This document shows positions 29,777 through 57,644 of a DNA stretch of 64,000 nucleotides, one piece after another. The DNA is from Terriglobia bacterium. Its GTDB lineage: Bacteria; Acidobacteriota; Terriglobia; Terriglobales; SCQP01. The translations under genes and the position numbers were made by a program. The notes under the pieces are model-generated. The model saw only the letters and a program-made list of their open reading frames with translations, had not been told where the DNA came from and ran no database searches. The stretch spans positions 28,359-92,358 of the forward strand of contig JAJPKR010000052.1 of assembly GCA_021323595.1 (NCBI GenBank), written 5' to 3'. Position 1 is the first letter of the stretch. Every line of letters begins with the position of its first letter.

Positions 29777-29852
29777 AAAAGGGGACAGCCTGATCTGCCC
29801 CGGTTTCCCCACTTCCAGGGAAACCGGGACGGCCCGGCCCGTCCCCGTATTT
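29777..29852. repeat. REP-like palindromic element, copy 1 (composite)
   Basis: AAAAGGGGACAG-CCTGAT-CTGCCCC, followed by inverted companion GGGAAACCGGGACGG-CCCGG-CCCGTCCCC; first unit nearly identical to 54639-54671. Confidence 0.65.
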
Positions 29853-52445: not shown

Positions 52446-53738
52446 TTGCTCGCATCTCTTCTGCTATTGACGGCCTTGATTCCACCGCCGTCCGCGCCCC
52501 GTCAGGCGAAAAAGCCTGCGGCCGCGGCTGCGGCGGCCGCGAGCGCCTCGCCCGAGCAGCAAGCCGACGAACTCCAAAAGATCCTCGAGCAGGCCAATGG
52601 CGAGCCGGGCGCGCGCCTGCGCGGGCTCGAGCGCTTTCTCCGCAAGTACCCGCACACCGAAGCCGCCGACCAGATCTATCAATTGCTGATCAAGGATGCG
52701 ACCGCGCTCAACGACGATCGCCGCGTGCTGCTCTACAACGAGAAACTCTCCGAGCTCCATCCCGGCGATCTCGGCCAGCGCATCAAGGTGCTCAATCTGC
52801 TCCTGCTCAATCACGACGCCGCCAGCGTCGCCCAGGCCCGCTCCGACGCCGATGCCTTGCGCCGCCTCGTCGAGCGCAAGGCCGCCGAAACGCCGCCAGC
52901 CGAGATGAGCCGCGCGCGCTGGGACGTGGACATGAACCGCCTGCGCGCCCTCGCCGACATGTTCCAAGGCGCCGCCGCGCTCGAGGGCGGCGATCCCGCC
53001 CGCGCCGTCGAGCACTTTCAAGCCAGCCTGCGTCTCGAGCCCAACGAAGAAGCCGCCGAAAAACTCGGTGACGCCTGCCTGCAGTTGCATCAAACCGCCG
53101 CCGCCGTGGATGCCTACGCGCTCGCCTTATCGCTGCCCGGCGACACCATCGCCGAGCGCAGCGCCCTGCGCGCCAAGGCCGGCGCGCTCTACGCGCAGCT
53201 CCACCACGGCAGCCAGGCCGGCTTCGGCGATCTCATTCTCGCCAAGTTCGACCAAATCGCCGCCCAGGACGCCGCCGAGCAGCGCGCGCTGCACCCCTAC
53301 GAGCAAAAAACGCCGGTGGCCAGCTACGCCGACTACGTGCTGCGCTCGCTCGACGGCCGCGATCACCGCCTCGCCGATTACCGCGGCAAGATCGTGGTCG
53401 TGGATTTTTGGGCGACCTGGTGCGAACCCTGCCAAGTCGAGCACCCCATCTTCGAGCAGCTCAAGCGCCGCTATGCCGCCGATCCCCGCGTGGTCTTCGT
53501 CGCCGTCAACACCGCCGACGACGAGAGCCAAGTGAAGCCCTTTCTGGCCGCCCACCATTGGAACGATGACACCTGGCTCGACGCCGGCCTCGCCGACTAC
53601 CTCGGCATCGATTCCTTGCCGACGACGCTCGTCATCGCCCCCAGCGGCGCCATCGCCGCGCGCCTCGCCGGCTTCGACGAAGCCAGCTTCGCCTCCGATA
53701 TCGAGCGCGCCATCCGCGCGGCGGGCCACCGCGGCTAG
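52446..53738 (+). CDS. TPR-containing TlpA-family thiol-disulfide oxidoreductase
   Basis: Signal peptide, helical repeats, VVDFWATWCEPC, LPTT. Confidence 0.88.
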   Translation: MLASLLLLTALIPPPSAPRQAKKPAAAAAAAASASPEQQADELQKILEQANGEPGARLRGLERFLRKYPHTEAADQIYQLLIKDATALNDDRRVLLYNEKLSELHPGDLGQRIKVLNLLLLNHDAASVAQARSDADALRRLVERKAAETPPAEMSRARWDVDMNRLRALADMFQGAAALEGGDPARAVEHFQASLRLEPNEEAAEKLGDACLQLHQTAAAVDAYALALSLPGDTIAERSALRAKAGALYAQLHHGSQAGFGDLILAKFDQIAAQDAAEQRALHPYEQKTPVASYADYVLRSLDGRDHRLADYRGKIVVVDFWATWCEPCQVEHPIFEQLKRRYAADPRVVFVAVNTADDESQVKPFLAAHHWNDDTWLDAGLADYLGIDSLPTTLVIAPSGAIAARLAGFDEASFASDIERAIRAAGHRG

Positions 53739-53775: not shown

Positions 53776-54036
53776 TCAAAACGATCGGGCGCGTTGCAGG
53801 TCGAGCGCTTCCACGCGCGTTTCGCCGGGGTTCAAAACGCCTTCTTGAAAGGGGAGCTTATGGCGGCGCAGCCAGGCTTGCACGATGTCGGCGAGCACGT
53901 GCTGGCCGCGGCCATGGATGACGCGCAGGCCCGCGTGCCTGCGCCGCGCTTGCCGCGCGCCCTCGAGCAATTTGCGTCCGACTTCGTCGTCCTCCGGACG
54001 CGACCCGTGGAGGTCTAAATCCAGATAGCGCGCCAC
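53776..54036 (-). CDS. Smr/MutS2-domain small protein
   Basis: LDLHG, RVIHGRG..VL...V..WL, NPG; TACACT 6 nt before the GTG. Confidence 0.8.
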   Translation of the reverse strand: MARYLDLDLHGSRPEDDEVGRKLLEGARQARRRHAGLRVIHGRGQHVLADIVQAWLRRHKLPFQEGVLNPGETRVEALDLQRARSF

Positions 54037-54085
54037 GCTCGCAGTGTAATCCGGCTGCCCCGCCGTTTGACGCTAGACTCGATTC

Positions 54086-54640
54086 ATGGCTCTGGCCGCG
54101 CCGGGTGCCGGCGACCCCGCTCCCGATTTTTCCCTTCCCGCCGCCGGCGGCGCCGTGCACCGCCTGGGCGAGTTAGTCGCCGAGCGTTCCCAAGCGCTCA
54201 TCTTTTACCGCGGCGCTTGGTGACCCTCCTGCCTCCGCCAGTTGGCGGAGTACGAGCGTGCGCGGCCGGCCTTCGAGGCCGCGGGCATGGGCCTGGTCGC
54301 CATCTCCACCGATCCCCTCGGGCGCGCGGCGGCGATGCGGCAAGAGCTCCGCTTGGGCTATCTCGTCTTGTGCGACACCCGCCGCGAGGCCGCGCGCGCC
54401 TGGGGTGTCCTCGATGAAAGCCGCTTCGGCGGCATCGCCACCCCGGCGACCTTCGTCGTGGATAGCGCCATGCAGGTCCGCTTCGCCTCGGTCGAATCGC
54501 GCAGCCGGCGCGTCGCCCCCGCCTCGCTCCTGGCGTGGCTCCGCCACGGCGCCGCCGATACTCCCGGCGCCCGCTCCCACGTCCCGCAATCGGCCGCCGA
54601 TCTCTGGCGCGCCTTCCGCCTCTGGCTAACTAAAAAGTAA
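54086..54640 (+). CDS. AhpC/TSA peroxiredoxin-like redoxin, probable selenoprotein (Sec at UGA 54221-54223)
   Basis: GDPAPDFSLP...LIFYRGAW-U-PSC-LRQLAEY...AISTD...PATFVVD is one continuous thioredoxin fold across the in-frame UGA; SECIS-like hairpin follows. Confidence 0.88.
54233..54250 (+). promoter_or_regulatory. bacterial SECIS-like hairpin
   Basis: CTCCGCC-AGTT-GGCGGAG; loop begins 16 nt after the UGA. Confidence 0.72.
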
Positions 54641-54671
54641 AAGGGGACAGCCTGATCTGTCCCCGTTTTCC
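54639..54671. repeat. REP-like palindromic element, copy 2
   Basis: AAAAGGGGACAG-CCTGAT-CTGTCCCC-GTTTTCC between convergent genes. Confidence 0.65.
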
Positions 54672-54677
54672 CGGCGC

Positions 54678-57644
54678 TCAGGCCGGCGGCAGCGCCCGCG
54701 CCAGCCCGAGATGCCTCCAATTCACCAGCGCGTTCAGCAGCAGCGCATAGCTGCCCTGCGTCTCGCCCCGCCAAACCGGATTGTTGGCGAAGAGCAAAAT
54801 GTGCCCGTCTCCCACCGGCACGTCGATCACTGCGGGATGGCCCGCCAGCGCCTCCCCGTCGGCTAGCTGCCCGCTATAAAGCAAGTCCTTGGCGTCGGCG
54901 AAGCGCAAGATCACGCGCGGCCGCAGCGCCTCCGGAATCAGATACGGCGAGTGCGTTTCCGCCAGCTCCGGCGAGAGGTACGGCGCCTGCCACGGCTTGG
55001 CCTGCGGCAGCTCCGGCGTCGGCACCAGCGGCCGCCCCTGCACCACGTCCGCCGATTGCGGCCCGTCGCCGGTGTCGCCGCGCCCGCTCGCCCGCGGCTC
55101 GTGCCCGCCGCCGAAGCCGCCGCGTTCGCTGTACCGCACCGCGAAGACCGGCCCGTTGTTGAAGTAGGTCGCGAGTTGCTTGCCGTAGCCATAGGCGACG
55201 GGGCTGTGCGTGTCGAGGAACTGCGTCTCGACCACCACGCCGCGCGCCCGCAAGCCGCCGGCGGGCGCCAGGCTCACGCCGTGCGTCAGCCCATATTCGA
55301 CCGCCAGCCGCGCCGTGTCCATCACCGTGATCAGCTCGCCGCCGGCTGCGACGAAGTGGCGCAAGTGCTCGAGCCCGGCGTACCCCATGCCGCCGCGCAT
55401 ATCCGCGGTGCTGGCGATGTGGCCGAGGTTGGGCGTCAGCGGCGTCGTCTCCCACGGCAGCGGCGGGTTCCAAGAGGGAATCCCCTGGAGAATCGCTGCC
55501 GGCGCCGCCCCCACCGGCGGAAACAAGATCACGTCGTACCGCGCGCGCAGATCGTCGTGGTCGCGAATGAAATGGTCGTCCACGTAATCGTAGGGAATCT
55601 GCAATTGGTCGAGCGCCAGCCGGTACCAGCCCGCGTCCTGCGTGGCCAGCCAGGTGTGCAGCAGCGCGATGCGCGGCCGCTCGAGCGCGTGCCGCGGCAC
55701 CGCCGGCGCCGCCGCCAGCCCCAGCGCCTTCACCCCTAGCGCGCGCGCCGCCGCGTCCAGCCGCGCCCGCGCCGCCGCCGGCACCAGCAGCGTGCCCGCG
55801 GCGAAGTCCCGCCCCGCCGCCCGGAACGGCGCCTCGGCGGCTTCGACCGTCACCCCGCCCAGCCGGTAGAGCAGCGCCGCCAGCGCCGGCTCGGCGTTGT
55901 TATCGACGGCATAGACCGCGCCCGTTCCGCTGGCGCCGCCCGGCGCCGTCACCGGCCCGCTGACCTTCTCCATCGGCTCGGCCAGGATCGCGGTATCGGT
56001 CACCCGCGCCGTCTCCACGTTGCGCAGCGGCCCTTGGCTCCAGCCCGAGTCGTCGTAAGGCCGCGGATCGCGCGGGCTGTAGTACTGCCGGTCGAGCAGC
56101 ATGTCCGCCATACGGCTGTACGGCTGGTCCATGCGGATGACGTAGCTGCCGGCGGGAAACGTCCGCGCCGCCGCCGCGCCCTTCGCGCCCGGCGCCGCGA
56201 CCCGCAGCGCCGCCGTCGCGCGCGACACCTCGATGCCTTGCGCCTCGAGCAGATTCAGCAGTTGCGCCTGCAGCGCCGGCCGCGGATCGTCGCCCGGCAG
56301 CACGTACGCCGCCGGCCCCTCGTTGCGCGCCTTCGCCAGCGCCCGCTCGCTCACCAGGAAGAAATTCCGCACGTACTGCTCGCGATGCCGCGCCATGTAG
56401 TCCAGGCTGATCAGCAGCGCGCTCTCTTGATAATTGGTGTTGTCGCGCTCCGACCACAGCGTCTTCGCCAGCGGCGGGTTCGTCCGCCACCAGGTGCGCG
56501 AGGTGTCGTTCGGACCGAGATACCGCATCCGCGTGTCGGCGCCGCCGTTGCCGAAAGTCTCGTAGAGCCGGCCGATGGCGTTGTGGTCGTTGGCGATGAA
56601 ATACAGATAGCTCGGGTCCCAGGTCGTGAACGTTCCGTACGTGTACACGCCGGGAAAGCCGCGCCGCGTCATCTCCTCGACGTTGTACCAGGCGATCTCA
56701 TGCCATTCCTGCGTGGTGATCGGATCGAGCCAGGCGTTGTAGGGCTCCGTGCCCACCGTGTTGTCGTACAAGTACGGCTCCGATTCGTGCAGATCGTGCA
56801 GCACCAGCGGATGGTATTCGAGGAACGTCCGCATCACCGCTTGCGTCAGCTTCAGCGACAGCCCCATGGCGTCGCGGTTGTTGTCGTGCGCCACGTAATG
56901 GCCCCAATAGACCAGCGGCGGCTCGGGCGAGTTCGGGTGCGCGCGATGCCAGTTGTAGACATCCACCATGCGGTCGTGGCCGTCCACCTCCGTCGTGGGC
57001 GTGATCAGCACGATCCACGTCTTGCGAATGCGCTGGTACATCGCGCTGTCATCCACCGCCAGCCGGTAGGCCAGTTCCATCAGCATCTCCGGGCTGCCGG
57101 TCTCCGGCGAGTGGATGCTGCCGGTGATCCAGTAGAACGGCACGTCCGCCGCGATCGCCTGCTGCGCCGCCGCCGGCATCGGCGCATGCCATTCCGCCTG
57201 CGTCGGATCCACGCCCAGCCGCCGCGGATCGGCGAGCTCGCCGTTGATCTTCTTGTATTCCTCCAGCCGCGCCAGGTTGCCGCGGCTCGAGATCGCCGCC
57301 ATCACGATCTCGCGCCCCTCCTCCGTGCGGCCGATCGTGAATAGCCGCACCCGCGGCGACGCCGCCGCCAGCGCGCGAAAGTACCGGTAGATGTCCTTCG
57401 AATACGTCAAATGCCCCTCGGCGCCCGCGATGTAGCCGAGCACCTGCAGCGGCGTCGGCACCGTCGCCGAGGCCGGCAGCGAAGAAACCAAGTCGCAGGT
57501 GAAATACGGCTCGGTCGTGAACTTGTGGATTTGCGCCGTGTAGGCCGCATCGCGCGGCTGCGGCGCCGGCGCCGGAGCTTGCGCTGCGGCCGGCAATAGC
57601 GTGAGAGTCAAGGCGGCGGCCAGCGCCGCCAGCGTGCTGCGCAT
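54678..57644 (-). CDS. M14 family zinc carboxypeptidase with C-terminal GATase-like domain
   Basis: Signal peptide, IGRTEEGR, SIHSPETG (HxxE), HDNNRD, HDLHE. Confidence 0.9.
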   Translation of the reverse strand: MRSTLAALAAALTLTLLPAAAQAPAPAPQPRDAAYTAQIHKFTTEPYFTCDLVSSLPASATVPTPLQVLGYIAGAEGHLTYSKDIYRYFRALAAASPRVRLFTIGRTEEGREIVMAAISSRGNLARLEEYKKINGELADPRRLGVDPTQAEWHAPMPAAAQQAIAADVPFYWITGSIHSPETGSPEMLMELAYRLAVDDSAMYQRIRKTWIVLITPTTEVDGHDRMVDVYNWHRAHPNSPEPPLVYWGHYVAHDNNRDAMGLSLKLTQAVMRTFLEYHPLVLHDLHESEPYLYDNTVGTEPYNAWLDPITTQEWHEIAWYNVEEMTRRGFPGVYTYGTFTTWDPSYLYFIANDHNAIGRLYETFGNGGADTRMRYLGPNDTSRTWWRTNPPLAKTLWSERDNTNYQESALLISLDYMARHREQYVRNFFLVSERALAKARNEGPAAYVLPGDDPRPALQAQLLNLLEAQGIEVSRATAALRVAAPGAKGAAAARTFPAGSYVIRMDQPYSRMADMLLDRQYYSPRDPRPYDDSGWSQGPLRNVETARVTDTAILAEPMEKVSGPVTAPGGASGTGAVYAVDNNAEPALAALLYRLGGVTVEAAEAPFRAAGRDFAAGTLLVPAAARARLDAAARALGVKALGLAAAPAVPRHALERPRIALLHTWLATQDAGWYRLALDQLQIPYDYVDDHFIRDHDDLRARYDVILFPPVGAAPAAILQGIPSWNPPLPWETTPLTPNLGHIASTADMRGGMGYAGLEHLRHFVAAGGELITVMDTARLAVEYGLTHGVSLAPAGGLRARGVVVETQFLDTHSPVAYGYGKQLATYFNNGPVFAVRYSERGGFGGGHEPRASGRGDTGDGPQSADVVQGRPLVPTPELPQAKPWQAPYLSPELAETHSPYLIPEALRPRVILRFADAKDLLYSGQLADGEALAGHPAVIDVPVGDGHILLFANNPVWRGETQGSYALLLNALVNWRHLGLARALPPA

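Follow-up and report, generated by a model that had tools for sequence, protein, structure and literature searches.

An AhpC/TSA-fold gene with an in-frame UGA, probably encoding a UxxC selenoprotein, in a Terriglobia bacterium

The DNA analysed here (the window) is a stretch of 64,000 nucleotides from the genome of a Terriglobia bacterium. Our subject is a gene on its plus strand that encodes a peroxiredoxin (Prx)-like protein of the AhpC/TSA fold and is crossed by an in-frame UGA, which we read as a selenocysteine (Sec) codon. By direct reading, an ATG at positions 54086-54088 is followed by 45 sense codons and an in-frame TGA at 54221-54223 (codon 46), beyond which the same frame runs on to a TAA at 54638-54640. 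The read-through product, MALAAPGAGDPAPDF...LIFYRGAW-U-PSCLRQLAEY...LWRAFRLWLTKK, is 184 amino acids long; under translation table 11 the frame is broken into 54086..54223 (45 amino acids) and an open reading frame (ORF) opening on TTG, 54242..54640 (132 amino acids). An earlier note on this DNA, made from the letters alone, had described the ATG, the in-frame UGA and the downstream ORF in the same frame, all of which are found as it wrote them. The span that it gave, 54074..54640, does contain the gene but starts too early, 54074 being where a TAGACT box begins, ahead of the gene. Two Pfam models match across the UGA, foremost AhpC-TSA (PF00578; residues 9-133, E 1.4e-24, 86.8 bits against a gathering cut-off of 26) and also Redoxin (PF08534; E 3.8e-19). 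The ratio of nonsynonymous to synonymous substitution rates (dN/dS) ranged from 0 to 0.63 over the 45 codons upstream of the UGA and from 0.18 to 0.48 downstream of it in 9/9 ortholog pairs. Because the ratio is below 1 before as well as after the UGA, both halves appear to be translated and selected. The overlapping ORFs (54173-54589 and 54358-54774 on the minus strand, 54067-54417 on the plus strand) had no Pfam match. We consider it very likely that the locus is an intact, single selenoprotein gene.

The UGA is a conserved feature of this gene. A search of 60 relatives and of the window's own genome (61 genomes in all; match threshold E 1e-8) returned a match in 36, with TGA in all 21 best places. 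In the 20 orthologous loci that were fetched, which represent 5 genera in two families and encode proteins 32-65% identical to that of the window, TGA occupies the identical alignment column (W-U-P-x-C) without exception (20/20); an extra 14-residue motif match in one locus (L028) was spurious and was removed from the count. Wider sampling of the phylum gave a profile match at E 1e-20 in 142 of 401 genomes. Thirty phylum loci were fetched (L127 coming from the unpublished genome G202), three of them repeats of earlier loci, and the 27 new ones carry TGA at the column in 24 cases and TGC in one (L136), the remaining two (L129, L139) not being placed by the motif. Cys stands at the UGA column in distant homologs, as the first Cys of FYRGAWCPxC, and in the subfamily members P0021, P0024, P0025 and P0059. 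The letters of the site are unchanged in contigs of 4 sequencing runs from 4 studies, two of which (X8 record 17 and X9 record 26) were not flagged as possible sources of the assembly. Since TGA is thus conserved in relatives and reproduced in independent contigs, both a nonsense mutation and an error of assembly can for practical purposes be excluded.

We note that nowhere else is the DNA of the gene as conserved as in the 36 nucleotides at 54218-54253, which comprise the TGG codon, the UGA and the hairpin described below. Contigs of other organisms from four metagenome runs resemble the gene over this interval alone, with 2-5 differences, beyond which they diverge.

The source genome (3.55 Mb in 65 contigs, 97.6% complete, 67.6% GC) is equipped for Sec insertion. 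Its selA (431 bits), selB (346 bits) and selD (351.5 bits) all score above the curated cut-offs, and ARAGORN finds a tRNA-SeC with anticodon tca, the sole tRNA with this anticodon among 49. The selD gene has an in-frame TGA of its own (...SKAAG-U-ASKLSP) followed by a stem-loop (L010; contig C5, 39148-40068, plus strand, outside the window), and a second AhpC/TSA selenoprotein gene lies on the same contig (~60712-61098, minus strand, also outside the window). The latter encodes a Sec peroxiredoxin with the classical TxxU motif (FFPRANTPG-U-IVEAREF); a hairpin whose loop reads AGUUU comes after it. The organism's selenoprotein list thereby gains one entry from the present gene, beside SelD and the Sec peroxiredoxin. 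TGA ends 1158 of 2476 frames of >=400 codons and, being the normal and commonest stop in the genome, is not globally reassigned. A quick motif scan for the other hidden selenoprotein of the window (the earlier note had counted the present gene as the second) yielded 169 read-through frames, 94 after filtering, among which none was identified, a result that does not imply its absence; in the recognisable genes among these 94 frames (TrpB, TrpC, GyrB, a desaturase, an SDR and a TPR-thioredoxin), the TGA was judged by eye to lie outside the conserved body.

Immediately downstream of the UGA, after nine bases, begins a hairpin with the features of a bacterial Sec insertion sequence (bSECIS), its stem formed by 54233-54239 and 54244-54250 (CUCCGCC/GGCGGAG) around an AGUU loop at 54240-54243. 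The bSECIS constraints given in the legend to Fig. 2 of PMC13188914 are an apical loop of 3-9 nucleotides, an upper stem of 4-16 base pairs, a minimum free energy of -7.5 kcal/mol or lower, a G in loop position 1 or 2, usually followed by G or U, and a spacing of 16-37 nucleotides between UGA and loop. With a loop of 4 nucleotides, a stem of 7 base pairs, a spacing of 16 nucleotides and -12.8 kcal/mol when folded in isolation, the hairpin lies within all of them. Its offset from the UGA is fixed in 20/20 orthologs, and 90.5% of the cells of the ortholog alignment are paired, compared with 24-71% when the partner strand is slid. Four of the pairs never vary, and at pair 17-26, where no row has a mismatch, 11 distinct rows have A-U and 7 have G-C; the covariation score was reached by 0/500 shuffles. 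Both bases of this switch are second codon positions, so that R51/A54 is exchanged for H51/V54. The codons of the helix read xTC CRC CAG TTG GYG in 20/20 orthologs. Leu53 is TTG in all 20, against 76 of 400 Leu codons (19%) elsewhere in the same genes, and Gln52 is CAG in all 20, against 85 of 116 Gln codons elsewhere, and these frozen synonymous sites are independent support for the predicted hairpin. Among the phylum loci, two sister subfamilies (U-P-F-C-N-S-E-L-R and U-P-Y-C-R-K-Q-L-G-E-L-Q) have different helices with G-containing loops at the same distance. The 7-base-pair hairpin reported in the earlier note is therefore real, kept in 20/20 orthologs and in agreement with the published description. 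The same note had held that a genome devoid of Sec machinery, or TGC or TGT at the site in close relatives, would speak against a selenoprotein; selA, selB, selD and tRNA-Sec are all present and the relatives carry TGA. It had also anticipated the Cys that AhpC/TSA homologs show in the UGA column.

A model computed with AlphaFold2 on the 20 orthologs (predicted local distance difference test, pLDDT, 90.6; predicted template modelling score 0.86) predicts a single thioredoxin-type domain in which U46 lies between a strand (35-40) and a helix (47-65), which would place the redox motif where helix 1 begins. The motif U-P-x-C, here U46-P-S-C49, is invariant in the ortholog alignment. Among solved structures, the profile matches 2cx3 best (E 7e-21), BCP/PrxQ and AhpE proteins ranging from E 7e-21 to 7e-15 and ResA reaching E 4e-15. 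Foldseek returned 3hjp at E 2.5e-13, with Bcp4, BcpB and AhpE as the best matches (TM-scores 0.68-0.76 on the query and up to 0.90 on the target, for AhpE). Profile alignment sets FyRGyW-C-Pf-C over FFPAAF-S-PV-C (2cx3) and FYPAAF-T-QV-C (2ywn), so that U46 falls on the Thr/Ser of the Prx motif PxxxT/SxxC and Cys49 on the peroxidatic Cys. An invariant Arg42 stands in place of the Prx Pro and an invariant Pro120 (GGIAxPA) in place of the Arg of AKRA in 2cx3 and 2ywn, which we take to be the catalytic Prx Arg. The Prx Pro, Thr and Arg are hence all replaced in 20/20 orthologs. In the model, Pro120 directly precedes a strand (121-125), and it is a putative counterpart of the thioredoxin cis-Pro, which would face U-x-x-C. 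The earlier description of the product as AhpC/TSA-like with a UxxC active site accordingly stands as regards fold and motif and falls as regards a strict peroxiredoxin, of whose PxxxT/SxxC motif only the Cys is kept and whose catalytic Arg is missing.

Because the residues that define a peroxiredoxin are replaced, the product is expected to work like a UxxC oxidoreductase of the ResA/TlpA/thioredoxin type, and its mechanism would be nearer to theirs than to that of a true peroxiredoxin. The hairpin at 54233-54250 would recruit SelB with Sec-tRNA(Sec) when the ribosome meets the UGA, leading to the insertion of Sec in place of termination. Sec46 may then act as the nucleophile on an oxidised substrate, which could be a disulfide, a sulfenate or a peroxide, and Cys49 would resolve the adduct to give an intramolecular selenenylsulfide, the oxidised protein being recycled by a thioredoxin-type reductant. 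We infer this redox cycle and the class of substrate from the sequence and its homologs. The protein is probably cytoplasmic, as the domain starts at residue 9 and leaves no room for a signal peptide.

Several observations weigh against a selenoprotein gene working in this manner. We infer the actual insertion of Sec at 54221-54223, and with it the full-length protein, from sequence. The spacing of 16 nucleotides is the lower limit of the published bSECIS model in PMC13188914. In this GC-rich DNA, the local fold is unremarkable (z -1.10, with 27/200 shuffles folding as well), and since the single-sequence fold is no better than that of shuffles, support for the hairpin comes from comparison and not from energy. 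When 53900-54800 was scanned against Rfam with E values of up to 10 allowed, no SECIS family matched, and the two matches obtained, to small nucleolar RNA and long noncoding RNA families, were at chance level. On a tree of the 20 proteins, the switch at pair 17-26 needs 2 changes, 1 being possible, and thus represents 1-2 events, and the compensated pair may reflect coupling at the protein level between residues 51 and 54 (i, i+3 on the helix). Five of the 20 orthologs (G001/L014, G021/L016, G011/L017, G015/L023 and G016/L025), including the closest one (G001/L014, from the same genus), come from unpublished genomes; when these five are dropped, TGA is found in 15/15. Finally, no conserved neighbour pointing to a substrate or a reductant was found at the 20 ortholog loci. 

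These points have to be set against what the other explanations of the UGA would require. If it were a real stop, in a pseudogene carrying a nonsense mutation or through a sequencing or assembly error, the broken frame under table 11 and the presence of only a truncated product (P0002) in public collections would be accounted for. Such a stop is, however, hard to reconcile with a TGA retained in 20/20 orthologs down to 32% identity, with purifying selection on both halves, with an identical site in contigs of independent studies and with a conserved hairpin just after it, and we regard its probability as negligible. Two separate products, a 45-residue peptide ending at the UGA and a 132-residue protein started at TTG 54242, are extremely improbable: this TTG is a potential in-frame start, kept in 20/20 and chosen by gene callers, but its conservation is accounted for by its role in the hairpin, and no Shine-Dalgarno-like sequence is evident upstream of it on direct, unscored reading. 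The 132-residue fragment would moreover be devoid of the U/C-x-x-C motif, of strands 1-3 and of half of the central sheet predicted by the model, and the 45 upstream codons are themselves under purifying selection (dN/dS 0-0.63). Alternatively, a suppressor or an alternative code might assign Cys, Trp or Gly to the UGA in place of Sec, for which it can be said that one relative, P0040, is recorded with Trp (WWPFC), probably by the caller's choice of code, and that Cys can stand in for Sec functionally, given that Cys forms exist. We hold this to be very improbable in a genome where long frames end in TGA more often than in any other stop (1158/2476), where the only tca-anticodon tRNA among 49 found by ARAGORN is tRNA-SeC, and where a complete Sec system is joined to a SECIS-type hairpin.

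A different question is whether the product, although a genuine selenoprotein, is a peroxidase, in which Sec46 would reduce H2O2 or organic hydroperoxides in the manner of glutathione peroxidases and Cys49 would resolve the selenenic acid, in an antioxidant role. Sec is highly reactive with peroxides, the protein matches the AhpC/TSA family, every one of its nearest solved structures is a peroxiredoxin (BCP, AhpE, Bcp4), and the same genome holds a Sec-Prx paralog (TPGU). The replacement of the peroxide-activating Pro, Thr and Arg in 20/20 orthologs nevertheless speaks against a peroxidase, as does the predicted layout of UxxC and Pro120, which would be of the thioredoxin type, for instance that of ResA (E 4e-15). 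A peroxidase is therefore a possibility that we think rather unlikely, although peroxidase and disulfide-reductase activities are compatible and not mutually exclusive.

The selenoprotein gene belongs to an already known kind, the Prx-like thiol:disulfide oxidoreductases, to which it adds one member. Publications on such selenoproteins (PF00578, UxxC) date back to 2004-2008: a table in PMC13188914 lists PF00578 with UxxC/UxxU as "predicted with high confidence" and credits its reference 12, Table 2 of PMC2398784 gives "Prx-like 1" (pfam00578, UxxC) with 225 Global Ocean Sampling sequences, and PMC1794560 reports 8 Prx-like sequences, in Geobacter, Syntrophus and Desulfotalea. As far as described features go, the Prx-like 1 selenoproteins match the present protein in PF00578, in UxxC and in a SECIS directly downstream in the coding region; again going by descriptions, the gene reported here is set apart by a conserved Trp/Arg C-terminal helix and by having no N-terminal extension. 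Sec peroxiredoxins (PxxxTxxU), one of which is encoded in the same genome, resemble the present protein in the AhpC/TSA fold and in placing a Sec within the turn of the active site. Their Sec replaces the peroxidatic Cys (TxxU), whereas here it comes three residues earlier, at the Thr position, and the Cys is retained. BCP/PrxQ and AhpE proteins (2cx3, 3hjp, 5epf, 1xvw) are the closest solved structures, from which our protein differs in having Arg42, Sec46 and Pro120 for the Prx Pro, Thr and Arg, and in its additional C-terminal helix. The CxxC oxidoreductases ResA and TlpA, our model for the mechanism, likewise open helix 1 with a dithiol-type xxC motif, and the Pro in their opposite loop may have its counterpart in Pro120; they are membrane-anchored, extracytoplasmic and use Cys, whereas the protein here is devoid of a signal or anchor sequence and carries Sec.

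SelL (NF040769), also of Prx-like fold and with Sec in a CxxC-equivalent motif, is the best NCBIfam match; at 37.5 bits against a cut-off of 120 the protein is not a member, and no NCBIfam model reaches its cut-off. According to PMC2398784, SelL carries UxxU. The Cys forms of cd02970 (Peroxiredoxin-like) have the FYRGAWCPYC box in common with the protein studied here. They differ from its subfamily in an N-terminal extension of ~45 residues and an insertion of ~25 residues, both of which the subfamily is devoid of, and in having no Trp/Arg tail. Proteins of cd02970 are described as CxxC proteins without the Prx triad. The table in PMC13188914 also lists a cd02970 selenoprotein with UxxS. A search of genome contigs with U back-translated as Cys (600 stretches, 594 confirmed) is uninformative on the distribution of Sec forms; the best 80 of the 594 confirmed stretches were Cys forms only, all of <=40% identity.

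Residues 160-184 are conserved within the subfamily, with the consensus WPxxRDWWRAL and with P168, R175 and A176 nearly invariant, and the model predicts a helix over residues 170-181, at lower confidence (block-mean pLDDT 62-78 over residues 151-184). A similar tail is found in the Cys forms P0021, P0024, P0025 and P0059. The earlier suggestion that this tail is amphipathic and associates with a membrane is not supported: though the tail is conserved and predicted to be helical, the hydrophobic moment of its best 11-mer (0.67) is matched by 23% of composition-matched shuffles, and only 3/20 orthologs reach 0.02 or lower against shuffles. That Pro, Arg and Ala in particular are conserved would favour a defined contact over generic binding to a membrane.

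Gene callers do truncate or split this gene, as had been foreseen. Its public record consists of a fragment of 117 amino acids (P0002) only, and the value of the present analysis therefore lies mainly in the correction of an annotation. A profile search of 1.84 billion protein representatives returned 25,715 relatives at E <= 0.001, of which 54 at E <= 1e-30. Among the best 150 representatives, 46 begin, at their own residue 1-2, at profile positions 44-51, just past the U column and mostly at position 49, which is the hairpin's invariant TTG, seven codons past U (position 42). These 46 look like mis-called Sec forms, which would mean that many redox proteins of soil bacteria are catalogued without their active site. 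Thirteen relatives were inspected, among which P0021 (37% identity over 171 amino acids, E 3e-33), P0024 (36%, E 1e-29), P0025 and P0059 are full-length, with Cys at the site and a similar tail. The existence of these tail-bearing Cys forms led us to reject an obligately Sec subfamily; the subfamily is a normal Sec/Cys pair and not a Sec-only lineage.

The gene thus provides a clean example of a coding-region SECIS that constrains the choice of codons and even of amino acids, and no new kind of biology. More tentatively, and with a likelihood that we rate as low, the tail-bearing clade might constitute a functionally distinct, uncurated Prx-like subfamily of stand-alone and apparently leaderless genes that occur with Sec or with Cys and are widely distributed among soil bacteria. 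The Trp/Arg helix of its products would serve to dock a particular partner or substrate, the SECIS of its Sec forms would be so tightly written into the active-site helix that a change of base pair forces R51/A54 to H51/V54, and the invariant UUG would act as a systematic false start that hides the family.

Other relatives show peculiarities of their own. P0040 has Trp recorded at the Sec column (FYRGHW-W-PFC), which is probably a TGA translated under a table in which TGA encodes Trp. In L130 (G159, contig C40), a Sec form of a sister subfamily (FFRGTW-U-PYCRKQLGELQ) continues as one frame of 554 amino acids into a long, repeat-rich C-terminus and would be a fused selenoprotein. P0022, P0023, P0026 and P0030, of 431-1430 amino acids, have 3-6 separate profile matches each and thus carry tandem Prx-like domains.

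Table 1. Features of the selenoprotein gene and its immediate flanks (positions in the window)
Feature	Position	Strand	Evidence
Predicted selenoprotein coding sequence, 184 amino acids + TAA, AhpC/TSA (Prx-like) fold	54086..54640	+	direct reading, Pfam, AlphaFold2 model, dN/dS
UGA, putative Sec codon (U46), first residue of the U-P-S-C redox motif	54221..54223	+	ortholog column, Cys homologs
Cys49 codon TGC, putative resolving Cys of UxxC, on the peroxidatic-Cys position of true peroxiredoxins	54230..54232	+	invariant in ortholog alignment; alignment to 2cx3 and 2ywn
Predicted bacterial SECIS hairpin, 7-bp stem and AGUU loop, UGA-to-loop 16 nt	54233..54250	+	folding, 20-ortholog comparison, published criteria
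Invariant UUG (Leu53) at SECIS loop/stem junction; false start for gene callers	54242..54244	+	20/20 orthologs, table-11 ORF start
Predicted Trp/Arg-rich C-terminal helix, residues 170-181, subfamily-specific conserved tail	54593..54628	+	AlphaFold2 model, ortholog alignment
-10-like box TAGACT, ending 6 nt before the start codon	54074..54079	+	TANNNT at same place in orthologs
GC-rich palindromic terminator-like hairpin between convergent genes, repeated element	54643..54664	.	terminator scan, genome matches

Upstream of the gene, a TANNNT box ending 5-7 nucleotides before the start codon is found in 15/20 orthologs (mean of 1000 shuffles 0.96, maximum 6; 0-2 at other offsets), and a two-hexamer sigma-70 scan at the locus found nothing. 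The fixed distance of the box speaks for ATG 54086 as the start codon and points to a leaderless mRNA with a putative transcription start at the gene itself, and leaderless mRNAs in the lineage likewise. Box-less members of one genus (L029, L031, L032) have GGAG upstream instead. Twenty sequencing runs are listed for the locus, with no RNA run among them.

On the minus strand at 53776-54036, divergent from the gene and with start codons 49 nucleotides apart, lies an ORF of 86 amino acids with a Smr domain (E 1.4e-7). About 350 nucleotides upstream, on the plus strand (52446-53738), is the gene of a TPR protein of 430 amino acids with a C-terminal thioredoxin-like/AhpC-TSA domain of the Cys form (WCEPC). 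A conserved operon was considered and rejected, the neighbours here being the Smr, TPR-thioredoxin and M14 peptidase genes and those in other genera being unrelated genes; argS lies within the locus in 8/20 orthologs, all of one genus. Neighbours are not conserved between genera; the gene stands by itself, and its context gives no clue to the substrate.

The terminator-like palindrome downstream is common to the selenoprotein gene and to the convergent M14-peptidase gene. It reads GGGGACAG...CTGTCCCC, with A-rich and T-rich flanks, and occurs again at ~29781-29802 of the window. The genome holds 17 matches to it with <=3 substitutions, on 13 contigs, and four times it forms tandem pairs 40 nucleotides apart (C11, C30, C32, C38). 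In metagenomes, the palindrome attracts piled-up contigs of other organisms.

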